A stretch of DNA of 64,000 bases from assembly GCA_049472395.1 (NCBI GenBank), contig JBLIRR010000009.1, forward strand, positions 59,710 through 123,709, given 5' to 3'. Below the pieces are notes generated by a model. It did not search any database. It saw only the letters and a list, made by a program, of their open reading frames with translations, and was not told where the DNA came from. The stretch is from a bacterium. GTDB lineage: Bacteria > SZUA-182 > DTGQ01 > JBLIRR01. Within the stretch, counting starts at the first letter, position 1. Each line of letters begins with the position of its first letter. The position numbers were made by a program, and so were the translations under genes. Shown in pieces: positions 1 to 11,377 of the stretch.

Positions 1-44
1 ATGGGAAAAAAGAACTATAAAGAATCGAGAGAACTAGTGCAAAA

Positions 45-610
45 GTGAACCTTGCCTGTGAAACAAAGTTAAGACGCAAGGATGGAAGGCTCATAAATGT
101 TGAAGCATCCACCGCAATCATCCAATATAACGGGAAACCGGCGACAATGGGAATTGTGCGAGATGTTACAGAACGGAAAAGAATGGAAGAAGAATTATTA
201 AAGATAGAAAAGTGTGAATCTATCTGCCGGGGTAAAGGGGAAATATTTTTTATGGATGATGATAAGGCACTGCGAGATACGATGGGAGATATATTACTAT
301 ATTTGGGTTACCAGATTGAGTTTGTGCAAAAGATGGGAGTGAGGCAATTGAACTTTATAAAAAAGCACAGTGTGAAAAGAATCCATTTGATGTGGTTGTC
401 TTAGATTTGACTATCCCTGGCGGGAGAGGTGGAAAAGAGACTATGAGGAAGCTTCATAAAATTGATCCCGATGTTAAAGCAATTATTTCAAGTGGGTATC
501 CCAATGATCCTGCTATATTTAATTATAAAAATTATGGTTTCAAAGGGGCAATTACCAAACCTTACGAAATAAATAAATTTAGCATGTTATTAAGAGAATT
601 AATTTCATGA
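45..610 (+). pseudogene. Disrupted PAS-C / response-regulator receiver gene (frameshift in an A-run near 328-331; stop codon immediately upstream of 45)
   Basis: ORF 45..404 ends a PAS-like segment and begins a receiver domain (FFMDDDKALRDTMGDILLYLGYQIEFV). Frame +2 continues the receiver from 323 (DGSEAIELYKKAQCEKNPFDVVVLDLTIPGG...KAIISSGY...ITKP). The frame switch maps to caaaag at 327-332. Confidence 0.4.
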
Positions 611-676: not shown

Positions 677-721
677 TAATTGTCAACTAATTGTCAACTA
701 AAACTAAATTTTATTGTCAGC
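677..721. repeat. Tandem direct repeats TAATTGTCAAC x2 (677-687, 688-698) plus a degenerate third copy ttattgtcagc (711-721), downstream of the 704..1759 gene
   Basis: Read directly from the sequence. The same 11-mer core recurs upstream of the gene. Confidence 0.7.
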
Positions 722-1759
722 TACATGCCTTATGATTGCGGCTATTGAGGGATTAAGATTCTCTGTTTTTATCACAATGTCAGGGTGTTGTCTTTTAAAT
801 ACTCGGAATACCTCATCAGCAAATCCCTGACCAAGTGCGTTTACACCTTTAAAATTCAATATGATTTCCCTAAATTTATCAAGCCCTGCAAGGAGTCTTC
901 TTGCCTCAGAGCGTGAGATATATTCAGTTTGAAACAGCTTTACATATACACGGGTCTTTTCAAACTTATAATCAAAAGCCTCGGGGGCAAATTCCATAAA
1001 AATTCCTTCGAGGATCCTTTTTGATCCCCTTCCTATGGTAAATGTCACTTCTGTCCCTTCAATAAATCTCTTTTGTTCCACAAATACATCTTTCTTGATA
1101 TTGTCGAAGATCAGGTTTATTCTGTGCGATCTGAAAGCAACGACATCCCCCGATTTTGATGAAAAAAACACTCCTTCGCCAGAGTGTCGTTCTCTCATCG
1201 TGGTCGTTTTTCCCTTTATCAGTTCCCCTATGACTGCATTTTCATCGGGTAAGTTGAATTTTTTATAAATTGAAAAAAAAATGCCGATACCATAATCTCT
1301 TATCTTGAAAGAAAATCTGTACTGATCCATAGTCACTTCGATATCACTCACCTCAGAAGAGGAATGCTCTATTGCGTTATTTAAAATCTCGGTAAATGCA
1401 TATCTGACGATATCTAAAACATTCTCTCTCAGATCACTTTTTAAATTTGAAAGTAAAGCAATCTCACGAAAAACCTGATCTTCCTCTAAACCTTGTAAGA
1501 TAACCCTTTTTCTTGTTCTCCCTGTAGGCTTGCTTTTTCCGACAATTTTATATATAGCCCCTCTCGTAGCACCCTCTTTTATGACCTCCCCATTTTGGAT
1601 CAATGTTTTGAGATGTTTATTGAGCGCTTGTCTTGATATACCAAGGAAATCGGATAGCTCCTTTCCGGATAACGTCTTATTTTCTTTAAGATATCTCACT
1701 ATAGTCTCTTTTGTGCCCATGAAATTAATTATACCTATTGTCAACCTATTGTCAACCAT
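704..1759 (-). CDS. HTH (winged-helix) - GHKL/HATPase-like ATPase - STAS-like C-terminal domain protein (single-polypeptide partner-switching-like module)
   Basis: N-terminal wHTH (LSGKELSDFLGISRQALNKHLKTLIQNG). N-box-like NNAIEHS, DYGIGI and HSGEGVFF glycine motifs typical of GHKL ATPases. C-terminal about 100 aa resembles STAS/DUF4325. The gene is flanked by 11-mer repeats. Confidence 0.55.
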   Translation of the reverse strand: MVDNRLTIGIINFMGTKETIVRYLKENKTLSGKELSDFLGISRQALNKHLKTLIQNGEVIKEGATRGAIYKIVGKSKPTGRTRKRVILQGLEEDQVFREIALLSNLKSDLRENVLDIVRYAFTEILNNAIEHSSSEVSDIEVTMDQYRFSFKIRDYGIGIFFSIYKKFNLPDENAVIGELIKGKTTTMRERHSGEGVFFSSKSGDVVAFRSHRINLIFDNIKKDVFVEQKRFIEGTEVTFTIGRGSKRILEGIFMEFAPEAFDYKFEKTRVYVKLFQTEYISRSEARRLLAGLDKFREIILNFKGVNALGQGFADEVFRVFKRQHPDIVIKTENLNPSIAAIIRHVADNKI

Positions 1760-1780
1760 ATTTAAATTCTATTGTCAACT
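1735..1780. promoter_or_regulatory. Three direct copies of CTATTGTCAAC (1735-1745, 1746-1756, 1770-1780) immediately upstream of the 704..1759 gene; likely operator/iteron sites
   Basis: Exact 11-mer repeats seen in the sequence. They lie between the start codon (1759) and the upstream AT-rich region. Confidence 0.5.
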
Positions 1781-2019
1781 TAAGAGGGTAAGACCGTTGG
1801 GCAATCGCATGAAAGATTTCGAGTTGTTCAGTGAGAATTTTAGATATTTTCTAAAAAATTTTAAACAGGGTAACAGTTTATCCTGTCAATATAGCTGAAA
1901 AGGTCACCCTCAGTTCGAAGAATAATCGGATCATTTCCGAAAAATTATATATTTCCACAGGGGCATTGTCCCTGATGAAATAACAATAGAAATCTAAACA
2001 GAAAAAAGCAGGGATAAAA

Positions 2020-3876
2020 ATGAATAGGTGGAATGTATATTTAAACGATGAGATTAAAGGTCCCTATACAACTGAAGAATTGTCCCAACTTGAAGGATTC
2101 ACATCAAATACAAGAGTTTCCCTTGACGATTACCATGAGAGGTGGGGAGCTGCTGAAACATTTCCAGAGCTTAGAAGTCTTTTTGGCAGCCCCGAAAAGA
2201 CCGATACCGCACGGTGTCCGGAATGTGGCGCATCTTTAAAATTTAAAGATGGTGAAATCAAGACAAAGTGTGAATATTGTGGTTCCTCCCTTGCTGTTTC
2301 TAAAAAAGAGGAGATGCTTGTTGCCACTGAATGTCCAAAATGCGGCAGTTCTATAGAATACCCGGATGGATCAAATACATTTAAATGCAATTATTGTAAT
2401 TCCTCCCTTTTAATAACAAACAGGGAGAGAATCTTTCATTTCCATATCAAGCAATGTATGGATGCCCAAGAAGCAGCTAGACTTGCCTCAGAGTTCGCCA
2501 GAAATGAAAATCTCAGAATTTCAAATCTGGCCCCACGGTTATATTATGTTCCTTTCTGGCGGTATACTGCAATCTCAATGGATCAGAATATCGGAGAGAA
2601 ATTTTTTGAATTTAGTAAAACAAGACTGAAATCTACGGTGGAAAGTGTTGTTGGAACTTTACACAATGCTATTTGCGATGATTATAATGATTATAAAGAG
2701 ATACCTTCCACCATAGGCACAAAGATCAAAAAGGTTAATGAAACTGACTGTAAGCTCATAGATTATAATATTCTTGCCCGTAATGAGGCATATGGCATTG
2801 ATACGCTAGGTATACAGGCCCAGGTTTTAAAATTAGAATCTTTGCATGATGAGGAATTAAAAAAGCAGGCCATAGTATTGCCGCCAACCATATCAATTGA
2901 AGAAATAAAAGACATGGTAATAAAAAATTCGACTATCGTGTATTGTGAAGGAGGAGACATAGCACATTGCGGGGAAAATTCAAATATGGACTATGAAAAG
3001 ATATATTTCCAGAAGAAAAGTCTGCTGGGAGAAAGACTTATGCTTATCTATTTGCCTTTCTGGATATCAGATTGTTATATTGGGCAGGAAAAAGCCTTTA
3101 TAGTAATCAATGAATTGATGAAGCAAGTGGACCTTTACCACGAAGGGTTTGAATTGGAAAAGGCTCCGGCTGTATCAGAAATCTACCAGATCCCGCGGTT
3201 TGCGCCATTATGCTGCCCTGATTGTGGTAAGAGCATGGAATCAGGAGAATTCCATGCGTTACACGTATGTATGAATTGCAATCGCCTGTGGCAGGCGGAA
3301 AATGATAAATTTATAAATGTTGATTTCAGTATTATTGCACCAAATAAAAAATTATCCGGGAAACTTATCCACTTGCCAATGTGGCAGTTTGAAGCTGTCA
3401 TCGCATCAGACTCATTAAAGATGAGCACGCGTGAGGAATTCTCCAGGATAGTCCCCAGGATGAGATCTTTCTCTCTCCTGAAAGAAGAGGATAGATCAAA
3501 ACCAATAAATATATATGTTCAGGGATGGGGTGACAGGAACTTTCCGAAAGTCAGCGGGATCCCCAAGAATTTCCTTGAACGTCAACCCGCCCTGAGTTTT
3601 GCTGAAAACAGCACAATCACAGATATGGTGCGATGTATTTATGATGAAAGAGAAGCAAAGGAAATGGCGCACCTGGCGTTTATATCAGTAATCCCGGTAG
3701 ATATAGCAATTTCAACCAGGTGGCTTAAATTCATAAATGAAATGCACATCGAGTTCAGTAAAACCAGGCTATTACTTCTACCCTTTTATGAACTGGGGCC
3801 TGATCTTATCGATGGCGTCACAGGTGCCAGTGTGCCTAAAGGGGAATTACAGGAAGGAATAAGAAAAATAAAATAA
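2020..3876 (+). CDS. Multi-zinc-ribbon protein with N-terminal GYF-like (DUF4339-type) domain
   Basis: Three CxxC...CxxC pairs (CPECG...CEYCG; CPKCG...CNYCN; CPDCG...CMNCN). N-terminus WNVYLNDEIKGPYTTEELSQL is GYF_2-like. No catalytic motif recognised. Confidence 0.5.
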   Translation: MNRWNVYLNDEIKGPYTTEELSQLEGFTSNTRVSLDDYHERWGAAETFPELRSLFGSPEKTDTARCPECGASLKFKDGEIKTKCEYCGSSLAVSKKEEMLVATECPKCGSSIEYPDGSNTFKCNYCNSSLLITNRERIFHFHIKQCMDAQEAARLASEFARNENLRISNLAPRLYYVPFWRYTAISMDQNIGEKFFEFSKTRLKSTVESVVGTLHNAICDDYNDYKEIPSTIGTKIKKVNETDCKLIDYNILARNEAYGIDTLGIQAQVLKLESLHDEELKKQAIVLPPTISIEEIKDMVIKNSTIVYCEGGDIAHCGENSNMDYEKIYFQKKSLLGERLMLIYLPFWISDCYIGQEKAFIVINELMKQVDLYHEGFELEKAPAVSEIYQIPRFAPLCCPDCGKSMESGEFHALHVCMNCNRLWQAENDKFINVDFSIIAPNKKLSGKLIHLPMWQFEAVIASDSLKMSTREEFSRIVPRMRSFSLLKEEDRSKPINIYVQGWGDRNFPKVSGIPKNFLERQPALSFAENSTITDMVRCIYDEREAKEMAHLAFISVIPVDIAISTRWLKFINEMHIEFSKTRLLLLPFYELGPDLIDGVTGASVPKGELQEGIRKIK

Positions 3877-4146
3877 GCAGCAAAGGCTCACCTTCAATAA
3901 AGTTCATTTTATTTTATGAAGTACTTTTATCGTGGAATCTCTTGAAGGAATGGGGTCAGGACCAATATGGTCAAAACAAGTTTTTATATCACAGGTAAGC
4001 AAATACTCCTCTACAATATTCGGTATGCTTTCCCGAAGCTTCTCATGAGCAGCTCGTTCTACACGACATTTTTGTTTTCTTACGTTTTTGTCCATTGAAC
4101 ATACCGCCCTTCCTCTTCATGTGTTGACATTAGTATGTGTGCGTAT

Positions 4147-6143: not shown

Positions 6144-6255
6144 CTGCTCCTTTTACTCTTTCTTTTTAATTTTCATATACAAATCCTTCTCATAAGTAAA
6201 TGATACTCCTATGTCTATATTTATATCGCACCCGTCCATTTTGTCAAATATGTGA

Positions 6256-6297
6256 GGGGGATAACAAAGAGGCTTATCCCCCTTACCTATTTTCTTT
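6256..6297. terminator. GC hairpin GGGGGATAA-(9 nt loop)-TTATCCCCC followed by a T-rich run; probable intrinsic terminator between the 6337..6900 gene and the nifU promoter
   Basis: 9-bp perfect stem (6256-6264 / 6274-6282) and a T-run at 6283-6297, seen in the sequence. Confidence 0.45.
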
Positions 6298-6336
6298 AAA
6301 ACAATATGTAGGAGCCTAAAAAAATAATGTATGTGA

Positions 6337-6900
6337 TCACAGTGTGAGACCCCATATATCAGACACAGTCAGGAGACTTGCCGGATCTGTCCCAAAGAGA
6401 AAGGGAGGATATAGCGCGAGATAAAAAAGATTCGCTCCGAGAATATTGGGAAGCTCTGCCCGCGTTCCGAGCGGTGGTAAAAATGTATAGTCGGGAGGTA
6501 AGGTTATCGGGAGAGGACTTCCTGTTGCCGGATCTACGAGATATGAGGGGGGAAAGTCACCAAAGCCATAATACATATTAAAATACAGCAATCCGCCACC
6601 TGCCATTGGGGGTATATTAAAAAGCGCCCACGTAACAGGTTTAACGGGGTCCCACGCAAGTACAGGCTCGACAGGAAGAACGGTAGCAGGAGTAAGGTCT
6701 GTAACGATGGGTGTGGGGACACCTGTCGCAGGATCGGGGGGCGAGAGGACGGGAGACCAGAGAGGCCAAAGCAAATTATACGGTGGCAGTGCTGTCCAAT
6801 ATGCTTGGGCGTGCACTGAAGAGAAGGGAGTGATCGCTATCACAGAAACGATTATGAGCATAGGAAATAGTAAAAGAAATATTTTTTTATCTCTGTACAT
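6337..6900 (-). CDS. Secreted P/W/Y-rich protein, divergent member of the LPPYN(T/L)LWPLWSP family
   Basis: Signal peptide ending VHAQA. Motif ALPPYNLLWPLWSPVLSPPDPATGVPTPIVTDLTPATVLP is shared with the 12.5-16.5 kb array. Confidence 0.6.
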   Translation of the reverse strand: MYRDKKIFLLLFPMLIIVSVIAITPFSSVHAQAYWTALPPYNLLWPLWSPVLSPPDPATGVPTPIVTDLTPATVLPVEPVLAWDPVKPVTWALFNIPPMAGGGLLYFNMYYGFGDFPPSYLVDPATGSPLPITLPPDYTFLPPLGTRAELPNILGANLFYLALYPPFLFGTDPASLLTVSDIWGLTL

Positions 6901-7261
6901 CGTGTATCTCCTTGTAAAATAATTATTAAAATTAAATGTGAAGAATCATTCCCTGATATTTCTTAGAGGAGGGCCACGAATGAATCTGTCTATGATATGT
7001 TTTCGCATTATTTTAGTATTGAGTATTTAGAGAAATTTTTTCAAATTTAATTATAATATATCTTTAATATATTTATTACTATGATTCAAATATACTTTTT
7101 ATTGATTTAATGTAACCTAATCTGGATAAGCAGAAAACAAATAAAGAGGACTTAATTGTGGAATAATATTAAAATGAGCTTGTTGAGTCACAATGTGCAT
7201 ATATTATATCAGTAGCAAATATCTGAGTCTCTTTATAGTGTCAGGTCTTTTATTAGAGGTA

Positions 7262-10200
7262 TCATTCTTCATTCTTTTCACGAGACCTGCCGAGCTTATT
7301 TTCTATGGCAGCAAGCAATTCGGGTGCCCTTATAGGCTTGCTCACGTAGTCATCCATTCCGGCTTCAAGACATCTCTCCCTGTCACCCTTCATTGCATAG
7401 GCGGTGAGAGCGATTATTGATATTCTGTCCCCTTTTTTTGCTTCTGCTTCCATGGTTCTGATCGCTTTGGTTGCGTCTAAACCATCCAGCACAGGCATTT
7501 GCACATCCATCAATATCAAATCTATTGAAGGGTTAGATTTATAGAGTGAAATTGCTTCTTGTCCATCATTTGATACAACCACATTATATCCTGATTTTTC
7601 TAAAACTTTTTTGGTTATTTGTTGATTTGAGATATTATCTTCTGCGATAAGAATAGTATAGGGTGTTTTTGTTTCAATAGGAATTTTTGTGTGTGAGGCA
7701 TTATGTGGTTCTTCTATTTCTGTCGGCGTATAGGGGAGCGTAAAATAAAATGTCGTGCCGTGATCAGCTCCTGTGCGAGATGTGAGTCTAATCTTTCCGC
7801 CCATTAACTCACTTAATTTTTTACAGATTGTAAGTCCCAAGCCGGTGCCGCCATGTTTTCTTGTGTGACTTACATCTGCCTGATGAAAGGGCCTAAATAT
7901 TTCCTTCTGTTTATCTTTAGGTATTCCTACGCCGGTGTCCGACACATAGAATTCTAATGTTTTCTTATTCTTTAAAGAAACGCCATATTCTATCGATCCG
8001 CTCTCAGTAAATTTTATTGCGTTGCTCATGAGATTATGCATTATTTGTTGTATCCTTGTGGGATCGCCCATGATAAATCTGCTTATAGTGTCAGGGCAAC
8101 TTTGTCTTAAGGAAATGTCTTTTCCTTCTTGAGATATGAGCATTGAGCAGTGAGAGTCAATATTATGTAATATGGACTTAAGTGAACAAGGAATAAGTTC
8201 AATTTCTAACTGTCCTGCTTCTATCTTTGAAAGATCTAAAATATCATTAAGAATAAATAATAATAAATTCACACTCTTTTTTATAGTGTGCAAATATTCT
8301 CTATGGTCCTCTGATAATTCATCACTAAGCATTAATTCCGTATAACCAAGTATAGGATTCAGAGGTGTCCTAATCTCATGGGACACATTTGCGAGGAATG
8401 CGGATTTCAAGCAATCAGACTCTTCTGCTTTTTCTTTTGCTTGTTTGAGTTGCTCTTCATATTCCTTAGTCGCTGTGATATCAGAAAAGCAGCCTGTCAT
8501 GCCTATTGGTTTTCCATTGTCATCTGTTAATAGTGATGCTTTGAGGCTCACAAGTAATTCCGTTCCGTCTTTTTTTCTTCCAACCAGTCCTTCTCCTGAA
8601 TAAGAGCCCTCGTTGGTTATAATATTGATGATCTCTTTTGCTTTTCCCCGGCTTTCCTCTGTCCAGTATTCCAGAACATTCTTCTCATACATCTCTTCAT
8701 AATCATTAAATCCCCACATCCTCGCAGCTGACGGATTCGCATACGTTATTGTGCCTTCAAGATCTGCTATGAATATTGCATTGAGAGATGTCTCAACAGC
8801 GCTATGCACTCTTTTTAATTCTTCTTCCACTTTCTTTCTGTCTGTGATATCTTCTCCCGAGCTTAAAATAGCAGTAATTTCCCCTGTTTCATCCCTCAGC
8901 ACGCTATAGTGCCACCTTATCATTCTTTCTTCACCATTTTTTGTAAGCACAGGATTTTCAAAATACTCAGCAGGCTCAATATTCCCGGCTATTAATTTGT
9001 TAAACACAGTTTTCACCTTGTCTCTTCTTTTTTCCGGAAGAAAATGATCGAACCAATTTTTGTTAAGGATCTCCTCTTTCTTGTACCCGAGTATCTCACA
9101 CCCATTTTTATTTATGAGGGTGACCCTCTGGTCGGCATCAATATTTACCAGCATAACTCCGGCAATATCAAGATAATTTTGCGCTTCATTTCTCTGCTGT
9201 CGTAATTCATTCTCTGCGCGTCTTCGCTCAGTGATATCTCTAAAAACACCCAGCAGATATTTCCCGCCGGAAAATGAAACTAAAGTCGAGTTTACATCAG
9301 CATAAAAAACGCCGCCATCTTTTCTCTTTACCGCAATATCTGTGGCAAGCTTAAGCTCACCTTTTGCCTGCTTCTCAAATTGCTCAATGATGTATGGAAG
9401 AGCTTCCTCGGGGTGTATGTCCATTATCCCCAGTGTTTTTATCTCCTCCAGGGTATAACCGAGCATCTGGCATATTGTATTGTTACCCATATCAAATTTT
9501 TTGGTTCCACTATCTGCGATTAATATTCCGTCAGTGGCATTATCGAAAATTGCCCTAAATTTTTGTTCTGATTCTGTTATCTTCTTTTCCCATTCCTTCC
9601 GATCGGTGATATCTATGAAGTTTTCTATGAGACACTTCTGGCCCTCAAGTTCAACTTTGGTCACCGTTTTAAGAATAGGGATTTTTTCACCGCTGGCAGT
9701 AAGGAGTGTACACTCGGACTTATTCACTGTCTCCCCAAGGTCTGTGATCGGGCAGCGTACTTTCTCGTCGGGACAGATATAGTTATGGCATACACTGCCG
9801 AGCAATTTGCCTTTTGGCACTCCACACATCTCGAGAGCCTTGGGATTAGCATTTATAATCTTGTGGGTGTTCGCATCAATCATTACAATCCCCGCGTGCA
9901 CTGTATCGAAGATGGTCCTTAAGTTATACTCGCTTTGTTGCAGCAGATCCTCTGCAATCTTTTTCTCGGTAATATCTTGAATCGCGCCTATCATAATTTC
10001 CGGAGTGCCATCGTTCCCAAGGTGTCTGATTTGAGGTTCTGTAGCAATGATCCAGCGTGTTTCGCCAGAGGGTCTTATAATCCTGTATGTTAATGGTGTG
10101 CCGGTAAATTTTTTAGTAACTCCTAATGCTGCATGGATCACCATTTCTCTGTCATCAGGATGTAAGAGAGTGTCGATAAGTGATTGAAAGGTATCGAATG

Positions 10201-11377
10201 TGTTATGTGTGCATGAAATCCCAAGTATTCTGCACATTTCATCCGACATTGTGAATGAATTATCTTTAAGGTTCCATTCCCAACTTCCCACATGCGCCAA
10301 CTGTTGCGCTCGCTTGAGACTTGCCTCGTTTTCTTGCAGCGACTTTTCAGTCTGTTCGTGTTTCAAGATATTACGCTGAAGTTGCTCGTTGATTGCTCTT
10401 AATTCTTTGGTTCGTTTTGTGACCAATGCCTCAAGATGATCCCTGTTGCGACGTAAATTTCTTGACATTAAATTAAACGATTGGGCTAACTCATTCAATT
10501 CTCGGCTTTGAAGTCCGGAAACTTCCTCGCCAAGATGTGTGCCCTCCTCTGCAATTTGGATTGCCTTATCATGGATCCTTCTGATCGGTGCACACACACA
10601 CTGCCTTACTGTTACATATTGCAGAATAAAAAAGCCTAAAATGATGAGTAATAAAATGCCGGAAAGCTTTAAAGAAAAACAATCAGCCATAGCGTATGCT
10701 GTATAAAGGGGAATGCGTATGGAAACGGCGGACACCGATTCTCCCAACCTACGATTGAATCCCCTTTGGATTCCAAATATATCAATAAGCCCTTGAGGTG
10801 CTATTTCCGGTGTGCTGTGACATTTCAGGCACGGCTCCGATATGGAAAAAGACCTCTTGAGAATTGTAAGATATGGCTCTCCATTAAATTTACGGATTGT
10901 TGAACGGCTCATAAGTTCCGGATTGATATTAAGCTCATTAATGAATGTCCTTTCATAGTCGTCCGCTTCATTTTTAGGACTTCGAGCATTGATAGCACAA
11001 TTTTTAAAATATAAATTGTCGGAATTTCTCGCTTTAAAATAGTCGTCAATCCTCCTGTTGGCATAGGTAGATGACATCCAGGTCGGATTAAAATATTCAA
11101 CTGGCACGTATTTTTCACCTATTGTAAAGGCATTCGGTTTTAGATCATGAAAAAAATAATCATGAACTGCTAATGTTCTGTCGAGGATAATTTCAGCCTT
11201 TGCTTGGGCCTCTGTAAGAGCCTGCGATCGCATGTGATAATTGACGAGTAAAACGATGGATATCGAAGATAGTGTAAATATAAAGGCTGTGATGATAGTA
11301 AGATATGTGGTAATCCTTAAAGGGAAAATTCTTTTTTTATATTCATTGATAATTTTTAAAAGTCTAGTAAATACCAT
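7262..11377 (-). CDS. Hybrid sensor histidine kinase: TM - CxxCH heme-type sensor domain - TM - about 5 PAS domains - HisKA - HATPase - C-terminal receiver
   Basis: CLKCH motif in the periplasmic-loop region (DUF3365-like sensor). Repeated PAS signatures ending ...DITERK. H-box FLANVSHEIRTPLNPI. G-box GTGLGLTICKKL. Receiver LIAEDNISNQ...LILMDVQMPVLDG. Confidence 0.85.
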   Translation of the reverse strand: MVFTRLLKIINEYKKRIFPLRITTYLTIITAFIFTLSSISIVLLVNYHMRSQALTEAQAKAEIILDRTLAVHDYFFHDLKPNAFTIGEKYVPVEYFNPTWMSSTYANRRIDDYFKARNSDNLYFKNCAINARSPKNEADDYERTFINELNINPELMSRSTIRKFNGEPYLTILKRSFSISEPCLKCHSTPEIAPQGLIDIFGIQRGFNRRLGESVSAVSIRIPLYTAYAMADCFSLKLSGILLLIILGFFILQYVTVRQCVCAPIRRIHDKAIQIAEEGTHLGEEVSGLQSRELNELAQSFNLMSRNLRRNRDHLEALVTKRTKELRAINEQLQRNILKHEQTEKSLQENEASLKRAQQLAHVGSWEWNLKDNSFTMSDEMCRILGISCTHNTFDTFQSLIDTLLHPDDREMVIHAALGVTKKFTGTPLTYRIIRPSGETRWIIATEPQIRHLGNDGTPEIMIGAIQDITEKKIAEDLLQQSEYNLRTIFDTVHAGIVMIDANTHKIINANPKALEMCGVPKGKLLGSVCHNYICPDEKVRCPITDLGETVNKSECTLLTASGEKIPILKTVTKVELEGQKCLIENFIDITDRKEWEKKITESEQKFRAIFDNATDGILIADSGTKKFDMGNNTICQMLGYTLEEIKTLGIMDIHPEEALPYIIEQFEKQAKGELKLATDIAVKRKDGGVFYADVNSTLVSFSGGKYLLGVFRDITERRRAENELRQQRNEAQNYLDIAGVMLVNIDADQRVTLINKNGCEILGYKKEEILNKNWFDHFLPEKRRDKVKTVFNKLIAGNIEPAEYFENPVLTKNGEERMIRWHYSVLRDETGEITAILSSGEDITDRKKVEEELKRVHSAVETSLNAIFIADLEGTITYANPSAARMWGFNDYEEMYEKNVLEYWTEESRGKAKEIINIITNEGSYSGEGLVGRKKDGTELLVSLKASLLTDDNGKPIGMTGCFSDITATKEYEEQLKQAKEKAEESDCLKSAFLANVSHEIRTPLNPILGYTELMLSDELSEDHREYLHTIKKSVNLLLFILNDILDLSKIEAGQLEIELIPCSLKSILHNIDSHCSMLISQEGKDISLRQSCPDTISRFIMGDPTRIQQIMHNLMSNAIKFTESGSIEYGVSLKNKKTLEFYVSDTGVGIPKDKQKEIFRPFHQADVSHTRKHGGTGLGLTICKKLSELMGGKIRLTSRTGADHGTTFYFTLPYTPTEIEEPHNASHTKIPIETKTPYTILIAEDNISNQQITKKVLEKSGYNVVVSNDGQEAISLYKSNPSIDLILMDVQMPVLDGLDATKAIRTMEAEAKKGDRISIIALTAYAMKGDRERCLEAGMDDYVSKPIRAPELLAAIENKLGRSREKNEE

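Follow-up and report, generated by a model that had tools for sequence, protein, structure and literature searches.

The closest characterized relatives of the gene described here are CapK/CapS and VapKSC. The CapK/CapS pair controls immune operons that lie next to it (Chambers et al., EMBO J 2026, PMC13373217). CapS is a repressor with a winged helix-turn-helix (wHTH) that binds its own promoter and represses the downstream operon too (PMC13373217). The CapK kinase is switched on by single-stranded DNA (ssDNA), and phosphorylation releases the repressor; the internal STAS domain of CapK is not a phospho-substrate and is predicted to form, together with the GHKL domain, an ssDNA-sensing groove (PMC13373217). 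In this study, a stretch of 64,000 nucleotides from a bacterial contig (assembly GCA_049472395.1, contig JBLIRR010000009.1, positions 59,710 to 123,709), hereafter the window, was analyzed around a single minus-strand gene whose product joins a wHTH, a GHKL and a STAS-like domain and which stands between two triads of short direct repeats. The segment 679–1781 of the window is probably a self-contained cassette of one gene that represses itself, spreads horizontally and has an operator array at either end.

The cassette resembles CapK/CapS in its set of an HTH, a GHKL anti-sigma-type kinase and a STAS domain and in its predicted autoregulation, CapK being compared by its published description. 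The non-substrate STAS domain of CapK also fits the STAS-like domain of the cassette protein, which has Gln instead of Ser. However, CapK/CapS consists of two adjacent genes before an immune operon (Bub, CBASS, Thoeris and others), whereas the cassette holds one gene without a conserved neighbor. The domain order is HTH-STAS-GHKL in CapK and STAS-wHTH in CapS, and wHTH-GHKL-STAS in the cassette protein. CapS binds TTAA palindromes as a dimer, while the cassette carries direct repeats of 9–11 bp, arranged in triads at both gene ends. VapS of VapKSC (PMC13373217) is the sole solved structure that matches the C-terminal domain by sequence, but it is a separate small protein with a phosphorylated Ser48 and a VapC partner, whereas the cassette has an invariant Gln and no recurrent PIN/VapC neighbor. 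Neither the wHTH-GHKL-STAS architecture nor direct repeats are mentioned in the CapK/CapS paper (PMC13373217), and a literature search returned only incidental mentions of 'DUF4325', the STAS-like Pfam family, and no description of the cassette architecture.

The cassette and its protein

The gene lies on the minus strand, which makes 1735–1780 its promoter side and 677–722 its 3' side. The features of the cassette, in window coordinates, are the following.

679..1781, minus strand: whole cassette (upstream triad, promoter, gene and downstream triad), the block common to relatives
1737..1780, minus strand: putative upstream operator triad, found by repeat detection, positions kept in homologues
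1728..1755, minus strand: predicted sigma-70 promoter, 12/12 consensus positions matched
704..1720, minus strand: coding sequence of 338 amino acids (aa) plus stop at 704–706, ATG at 1720–1718, where homologues start
1535..1720, minus strand: winged helix-turn-helix, aa 1–62, recognition helix SRQALNKHLK
1031..1483, minus strand: GHKL ATP-binding kinase-like domain, aa ~80–230
719..952, minus strand: STAS-like DUF4325, aa ~257–334, Pfam E 9.5e-14
679..722, minus strand: putative downstream operator triad, found by repeat detection, equivalent triad in relatives

The sequence ATTGTCAAC occurs exactly five times in the window, at 679, 690, 1737, 1748 and 1771 and always on the plus strand, where 0.48 copies are expected; 0/100 shuffles gave five. 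A copy with one mismatch, ATTGTCAGC, is found at 713. Read as 11-mers, the repeats are CTATTGTCAAC in three copies (1735–1745, 1746–1756, 1769–1779) and TAATTGTCAAC in two (677–687, 688–698). Both clusters form one 44-nt direct repeat (679–722 and 1737–1780, 82% identity, 1058 bp apart) that brackets the gene, and all exact copies are confined to it. Each 44-nt repeat is a triad of (G)TTGACAAT sites whose starts are spaced by 23 and 11 bp, i.e., two abutting 11-mers and a third beyond an AT-rich spacer of 12–13 nt, with the same layout at both ends. The copies, positions and single orientation of the repeats, with three 11-mers on the promoter side (1735–1779), are as the initial annotation had given them. 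It had also placed two copies and a degenerate third after the stop codon. The two copies (sites 2 and 3, 690–698 and 679–687) are indeed 3' of the stop, but the degenerate one (site 1, 713–721, GCTGACAAT) lies inside the last codons and makes up codons A-D-N of the C-terminal tail VADNKI, so that the stop at 704–706 falls between the copies, in the spacer of the triad. The full tail reads HVADNKI, and the family consensus is HVVDNKI. Neither Rfam or tRNA features nor a GC anomaly were found in the window.

On the gene strand, the upstream cluster reads AGTTGACAATAGAATTTAAATATGGTTGACAATAGGTTGACAATAGGTATAATTAATTTCATG and comprises a distal GTTGACAATAG (core 1771–1779), a 12-nt AT-rich spacer and then GTTGACAATAG GTTGACAATAG, two abutting cores at 1748–1756 and 1737–1745. 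Relative to the ATG, the three sites stand at -58, -35 and -24. The -35 hexamer TTGACA (1755–1750) lies inside the middle site, the 16-nt promoter spacer is filled by the proximal site, and the -10 hexamer TATAAT follows at 1733–1728. The sites therefore lie on a perfect -35 and occupy the spacer; this is the arrangement of a repressor operator overlapping its own promoter and implies repression at the sequence level. Because the ATG is only 7 nt past the -10 and is preceded by no Shine-Dalgarno sequence, the mRNA of the cassette is probably leaderless. The public annotation (P0001, 704–1759, 351 aa) starts 13 codons too early, since homologues align from the ATG at 1720; its N-terminal extension MVDNRLTIGIINF is translated operator and promoter, and the same artefact (MTIxIIxFM...) recurs in several homologues. 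Almost certainly, translation begins at the ATG at 1720 and not at 1759. On the other side of the gene, inspection of the sequence 3' of the downstream triad found neither a -10 element nor an intrinsic terminator. The distal upstream site with its spacer (GTTGACAATAGAATTTAA) would translate as VDNRI-stop, so that the upstream triad resembles a copy of the 3' end of the gene.

The initial annotation had described a DNA-binding wHTH, an anti-sigma-kinase-like GHKL ATPase and a STAS-like domain in one chain, and Pfam supports this reading (HTH_11/HTH_24; HATPase_c_2 with 27.1 bits at a cut-off of 27.4; DUF4325 'STAS-like' with E 9.5e-14). The order is wHTH, SpoIIAB/RsbW-like GHKL kinase-like domain and STAS-like DUF4325, and the AlphaFold model has a beta-alpha repeat fold over the DUF4325 region. 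The GHKL domain has the fold and boxes of partner-switching kinases of the SpoIIAB/RsbW type, with an N box (E111..N114 N115..H119), a G1 box (D142xG144xG146) and a G2-like box (G181 E182 G183), and these ATP-binding boxes do not vary among 31 sequences. When the C-terminal domain was searched as a profile, one solved structure matched, VapS (PDB 9z7o, E 0.023), in an alignment that spans all of DUF4325 together with its motifs ILDF..V and IIxxVV(D/E)N. In it the VapS motif FAS*PFF is aligned to GQ*GFAD, and the conserved phosphorylated Ser48 of VapS (its number deduced from an 18-residue tag, the difference between chain and native length) corresponds to Gln298. This Gln is invariant in the 31 sequences. 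SpoIIAA likewise carries a phosphorylated Ser at this STAS position. At the start of STAS helix 2, therefore, Gln298 replaces the phosphorylatable Ser/Thr, and the STAS-like domain cannot be a classical phospho-substrate. The suggestion that the chain holds both halves of a partner-switching pair fails at this residue.

Compared with SpoIIAB-SpoIIAA, RsbW-RsbV and the fused Rv1364c of M. tuberculosis, the cassette protein lacks the phospho-acceptor Ser and has an added wHTH. Partner switching uses a separate kinase and antagonist together with a sigma factor or PP2C partner, whereas the cassette encodes a single polypeptide with no sigma factor or PP2C phosphatase as partner, and no family is found among more than 3 of its 127 nearest neighbors in homologue loci. 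The output of the protein appears to be DNA binding rather than sigma sequestration. No recombinase, transposase, integrase or HUH domain was detected in the protein with Pfam and NCBIfam, no Rep-like domain with Pfam and no PADLOC match beyond the HTH.

Winged-helix Rep proteins bind direct repeats, and the region is AT-rich, as would suit the iterons of an integrated mini-replicon origin. The initial annotation had used the word iteron as well. Since the protein is not Rep-like, no relative was found in 72,556 plasmid records (tblastn) and homologue loci lie in chromosomes of up to 5.75 Mb, replication iterons are scarcely credible; the same holds for a chance or low-complexity repeat, which the shuffles and the conservation described below exclude.

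Conservation of the triads and their match to the recognition helix

The family is large: there were 2829 homologue matches at 90% clustering and, at 50% identity and E <= 1e-30, 633 clusters, almost all of them 335–350 aa long. At least 529 relatives, spread over more than 15 phyla and nearly all from uncultured organisms, were found in scans with one genome per species. The best 80 relatives are all from metagenome-assembled genomes and belong to WOR-3, Desulfobacterota, Nitrospirota, Verrucomicrobiota, Planctomycetota, Chloroflexota, Bacteroidota, Gammaproteobacteria, Spirochaetota, Patescibacteria, Melainabacteria and Actinomycetota. The comparisons support the conclusion that the cassette has spread horizontally through many phyla.

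The arrangement of promoter and operator is kept in homologues, with upstream triads at about -58, -35 and -24. The start codon lies 6–7 nt past the -10 in 48 of the 58 promoters with a recognizable -10, and a Shine-Dalgarno-like sequence was seen in 1/58. The initial annotation had proposed to look for flanking repeats in homologous genes, and they are present as follows.

Relatives of at least 54% identity: upstream triad in 23/23, 3' triad in 19/26
Relatives below 54% identity: upstream triad in 30/48, 3' triad in 9/52

Every exact TTGACAATNNNTTGACAAT in the 80 homologue loci (~600 kb) abuts the gene at its 5' or 3' end and is on the gene strand. The two non-coding 3' sites have near-perfect cores and the exact 11-bp spacing, though the proteins are just 45–60% identical. 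In six relatives with ~46–51% identity to the window protein (L231, L293, L315, L316, L339 and L048), the 3' triad is often missing, and a second triad is found instead 75–165 nt upstream of the promoter triad. On contig CAYHGV010000043.1 (23 kb), two complete cassettes with both triads each (L009 and L012) lie ~13 kb apart, so that multiple copies per genome do occur.

The 3' triad could also be a functionless relic, either the promoter-operator left behind by a second tandem copy that was lost or a duplicate of the upstream region. The repeat unit has the length of one gene, as in an ancestral tandem array, many family members have no 3' triad, and a distal triad copy at locus L058 (see below) keeps a degenerate -10 and start. 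But a triad without function would have decayed, as the -10 region after it did, whereas the non-coding 3' sites keep their cores and 11-bp spacing in lineages of 45–60% identity and follow the variant motif of their subfamily (L067, L069). A relic is thus highly improbable.

The repeat varies together with the recognition helix of the wHTH, as listed here.

Most loci: recognition helix SRQAxNKH, repeat TTGACAAT
L067, L069 and L075: recognition helix SRQA(I/A)A(Q/K)H (SRQYAALL in L075), repeat TTTACAAT
L073: recognition helix SRQTVLQH, repeat CCTGTCAAT
L070, L071, L074, L076, L079 and L080: recognition helix SRAYINRFF with a changed wing (GKANxA), repeat GTTGACAACTT

The subfamilies with variant repeats keep the same overall architecture, and in L067 and L069 the variant is also present at the 3' end. 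The L070–L080 group, largely from the candidate phyla radiation (CPR)/Patescibacteria, has an operator layout of its own, in which GTTGACAACTT GTTGACAACTT stands as a direct pair ahead of the -10, while AAGTTGTCAAC, the inverted copy, is placed after the -10 and before the start. This covariation is the strongest computational argument that the wHTH reads the sites, including those at the 3' end, and it argues against the repeats being merely -35 hexamers. With the fixed positions in homologues and the adjacency to the gene in ~600 kb, it makes the proposal of the initial annotation, that the repeats are operators for the protein's own wHTH, very probable.

MarR/ArsR-type autorepressors have a winged-helix fold, which the cassette protein shares, but they bind palindromes as dimers, whereas the cassette sites are direct and an inverted copy is found only in the L070–L080 subfamily. 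Winged helices of the OmpR/PhoB type read direct repeats with an 11-bp period that overlap or replace the -35 (pho box), and they bind head to tail. OmpR and PhoB are, however, activators with receiver domains, while the cassette sites lie on a perfect -35 and in the spacer, with a third site 23 bp upstream and an array at the 3' end.

Boundaries, genomic context and solo triads

In blastn comparisons with the closest relatives (L226 and L229, with 76% and 82% aa identity), the aligned block is exactly 679–1781 and the flanks are unrelated. Among 156 cassettes compared, several pairs with 92–95% DNA identity (L002/L291, L002/L355, L005/L272, L039/L308 and L335/L349) lose homology on at least one side, within ~10–35 nt of the triad in the pairs looked at closely. 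Triads often coincide with breaks of synteny. The GC content of the gene follows that of the host (r 0.93) and is on average 4 points lower; the family thus mixes long residence with transfer.

No neighbor recurs. In an all-against-all comparison of 825 open reading frames (ORFs) from the flanks, the largest cluster covered 5 loci (generic ABC ATPases), and the 127 nearest neighbors, searched with Pfam and PADLOC, gave at most 3 matches per family, were mostly housekeeping genes and had no enrichment of integrases or transposases. Neither a recurrent PIN/VapC gene nor a STAS-wHTH neighbor was found in the flank ORFs and the 127 neighbors. A conserved operon partner and a defense island were considered and ruled out, as nothing recurs and PADLOC families reach at most 3/127 neighbors. 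No tblastn match was obtained in the 72,556 plasmid records or in phage records, and viral contigs hold only 11 distant relatives with 31–39% identity.

A scan of metagenomes for the triad pattern gave a sample of 120 stretches, with tandem arrays of 11-mers removed before classing. Of the triads, 59 were upstream of a homologue (6 more were cut by contig ends), 21 were downstream and ~24 were solo, i.e., without the gene. Of 125 upstream triads, 73 have a -10 element behind them; for downstream triads the count is 5 of 69 and for solo triads 8 of 43, none of the solo ones reaching a score of 5/6. The two triads of a locus resemble each other in their spacers more than triads of different loci do (0.56 vs 0.44, permutation p ~1e-4).

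Solo triads away from the gene could be taken for the regulon of an ordinary global or local transcription factor, with the solo and 3' triads as regulatory sites of other genes. Some solo triads do stand just upstream of genes in the same orientation, such as an aromatic lyase gene (L273, L281, L351), and the related CapS represses a downstream operon in addition to itself (PMC13373217). Yet a -10 seldom follows the downstream and solo triads, the genes 3' of the downstream triad vary in family and orientation, and no triad was found beyond the cassette in the window or elsewhere in the 600 kb of homologue flanks. A regulon, which the initial annotation had proposed to define by a search for further repeat clusters in the genome, is thus not indicated, and this explanation is very unlikely.

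The solo triads upstream of the lyase gene are better compared with a filled site. In Desulfatiglandales-like contigs, the order at L351 is rpoD, triad, gene, second triad and aromatic lyase gene, whereas L273 and L281 have one triad upstream of the orthologous lyase gene and are empty sites. Their solo triad is the left flank and spacer of the upstream triad of L351 joined to the right flank of its downstream triad. Such a junction is the product expected of recombination within the shared segment from site 2 to site 3, and it would be compatible with deletion and Campbell-type integration alike. Deletion by the host between the 44-bp direct repeats suffices to explain the solo triads. As a clean empty site for L028, L250 was ambiguous, since it shares only the left flank and the triad.

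Further loci show repeated triads or flanking repeats. In the reverse complement of L311, four near-identical triads of one orientation lie within 4.6 kb (6223–10840) and enclose a TauE gene (triads 1–2), the cassette gene (2–3) and an AbiEi-antitoxin-like gene without a Pfam match (3–4); triads 3 and 4 have 59 nt in common, 15 of them in the right flank. At L058 (3930–8520), the upstream triad recurs 3.4 kb downstream of the gene as an 85-nt copy whose -10 and start are degenerate; between the direct repeats lie the regulator, an AIPR (abortive-infection) gene and an unknown gene of 368 aa. L046 has a 10-bp direct repeat, CAAGGGCGTT, just outside both triads, where 0.02 such cases are expected among 58. 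At L002, a 310-nt AT-rich insertion (3604–3913) with short CATCCA repeats at its ends lies ~30 nt upstream of the cassette and is absent from the otherwise collinear L291; it may be a miniature insertion element.

Apart from L046, the substrings shared by the outer flanks of 58 cassettes do not differ from the null, so that a general target-site duplication is not seen. Many homologues are on contigs of 1.1–2 kb, and circular or tandem forms were looked for among them; L355–L357 have unique flanks and no terminal overlap. No locus has two tandem copies, although identical tandem copies would collapse in short-read assemblies. Transposons, insertion sequences and integrons encode a transposase or integrase and are marked by terminal inverted repeats, attC sites or target-site duplications, none of which is present here apart from the 10-bp repeat of L046, the terminal repeats being direct. 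The cassette does share with transposons the occurrence of one unit in different contexts with filled and empty sites, but its empty sites keep one triad.

These data bear on an actively mobile selfish element, in which the triads would be att-like, the protein would synapse them, and a 1.06-kb circle would be excised and re-integrated at solo triads by host recombination or an unrecognized activity of the protein. The sharply bounded unit, the 92–95% identical cassettes in different contexts, the ~24 solo triads without promoter, the empty sites with exactly one triad and flanks chimeric between both junctions, the upstream triad that resembles the gene 3' end as at a circular or tandem junction, the four triads of L311, the 85-nt repeat around cargo genes at L058 and the 10-bp repeat of L046 all speak for it. 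Nonetheless, no recombinase, transposase or HUH domain is present in the protein or the 127 neighbors, the 58 cassettes have no general target-site duplication, circular or tandem contigs were not found and the short contigs have unique flanks. Plasmid and phage records hold no relatives and viral contigs only distant ones, the GC content is largely ameliorated to the host, and ordinary host deletion accounts for the solo triads without any element-encoded activity. Active mobility of this kind is therefore unlikely. In a more specific form, a gene-sized selfish element of a new kind, the protein would bind both triads head to tail, pair them and drive or strongly bias Campbell-type excision and re-integration without a classical recombinase; this is quite unlikely. 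If it were true, the consensus promoter and leaderless mRNA would permit expression in almost any host. The alternative raised in the initial annotation, the boundaries of a small mobile cassette, is thus upheld as far as boundaries, single-triad empty sites and near-identical cassettes elsewhere are concerned, but no recombinase or target-site duplication accompanies them.

In the window itself, the 3' end of the cassette adjoins a decayed remnant of a sensor kinase (1–610, plus strand). Its first ORF (45–404) has no Pfam match and reads as though the last part of a PAS domain passed directly into the beginning of a receiver, the HisKA/HATPase part being missing; after a frameshift near 340–395, ORF 392–610 is the C-terminal half of the receiver (PF00072). 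An exact 13-nt inverted repeat, AATTAATTTCATG, is found at 597–609 (plus strand), at the end of the receiver ORF and 70 nt outside the 3' triad, and at 1718–1730 (minus strand), where it runs from the -10 to the cassette's ATG, with a chance probability of roughly 0.04. On the other side, the protein encoded at 2020–3876 (plus strand, 618 aa) has a GYF_2-like domain at its N terminus and two motifs of the zinc-ribbon type; all its Pfam matches are weak, and it has no other annotation.

Proposed mechanism and significance

In the favored explanation, an autorepressed and horizontally spreading cassette, the wHTH of the protein very probably binds the sites of the triads. By analogy with OmpR/PhoB winged helices on 11-bp repeats, the monomers probably bind head to tail, one per site. 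Occupancy of the sites on the -35 and in the spacer would, with good support from their positions, switch off the protein's own transcription. The same protein would also bind the 3' triad, a second operator array, which may cooperate with the promoter triad by looping over the 1.06-kb gene, or may act as a roadblock or insulate the terminator-less cassette from neighboring transcription. ATP binding by the GHKL domain and ligand sensing with the non-phosphorylatable STAS-like domain could conceivably tune oligomerization or DNA binding, and by analogy with CapK the ligand might perhaps be ssDNA. It is also conceivable, though unlikely, that the protein is a promoter-tethered anti-sigma factor, because its site contains the -35 hexamer. 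Bounded by triads that form direct repeats of 44 bp, the gene behaves as a discrete unit of insertion and deletion; recombination between them would leave a single solo triad, and its reverse would use one.

Two known arrangements resemble this layout. In the immunity region of lambda, cI lies between the tripartite OL and OR, which interact by long-range looping, and the region travels as a specificity unit. The cassette likewise has a regulator gene between two three-site operator arrays that are putatively bound by its own product, but the lambda sites are palindromic, 2.4 kb apart and serve divergent lytic promoters, whereas those of the cassette are direct, 1.06 kb apart and accompanied by one evident promoter. 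Solo long terminal repeats (LTRs) arise by deletion between direct terminal repeats. With LTR elements, the cassette shares a gene-sized unit, direct repeats, a promoter in the 5' copy and empty sites that keep a single repeat; it differs in having repeats of 44 bp and not hundreds, no reverse transcriptase or integrase and no target-site duplication. The cassette is thus not a member of classical partner switching, CapK/CapS, MarR-type palindrome binders, iteron replicons or transposons, but it is autorepressor-like all the same.

Several points weigh against this explanation. An autoregulator with itself as the only target has no obvious benefit for the host. About a quarter of the close relatives and most of the distant ones have no 3' triad, which is dispensable to the family. 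The GC content that tracks the host indicates that many copies are old residents and not recent arrivals. The filled and empty sites compared are from different species, and their flanks diverge again within ~80 nt; other pairs (L250/L028) share just one flank, so that simple excision is not the sole event at these sites. The link of the wHTH to its sites is drawn from co-occurrence and covariation, and looping, the roadblock and ligand control are weaker inferences than autorepression. TTGACA is also the -35 consensus, and many phage promoters have a tandem TTGACAAT pair and then TATAAT where the gene is absent; promoter architecture could therefore account for some of the upstream pattern.

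Such promoters, with TTGACAATnnnTTGACAAT, 5–6 nt and TATAAT or TATAAA, are found on the viral contigs L090, L112, L114, L130, L150 and L178, which have no homologue of the gene. The second copy of the -35-like octamer, in the spacer, looks like either a promoter design that recurs or the operator of another repressor. The matches of viral contigs to the pair or triad pattern were set aside as unrelated promoters or tandem arrays of 11-mers.

For the large uncharacterized family, the analysis provides a testable model, an operator code (GTTGACAAT with 23- and 11-bp spacing) and a correspondence between recognition helix and site. The cassette would be a minimal portable expression unit with a consensus promoter, a probably leaderless mRNA, autorepression and arrays at both ends, which bears on how transferred genes may stay silent yet expressible in new hosts and may offer a part for synthetic circuits. 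The solo triads and the filled and empty sites present a regulator gene that behaves like an LTR-bounded unit. Finally, the resemblance to CapK/CapS and VapKSC, which are sensors of DNA damage, suggests a single-chain version of the same signaling logic.

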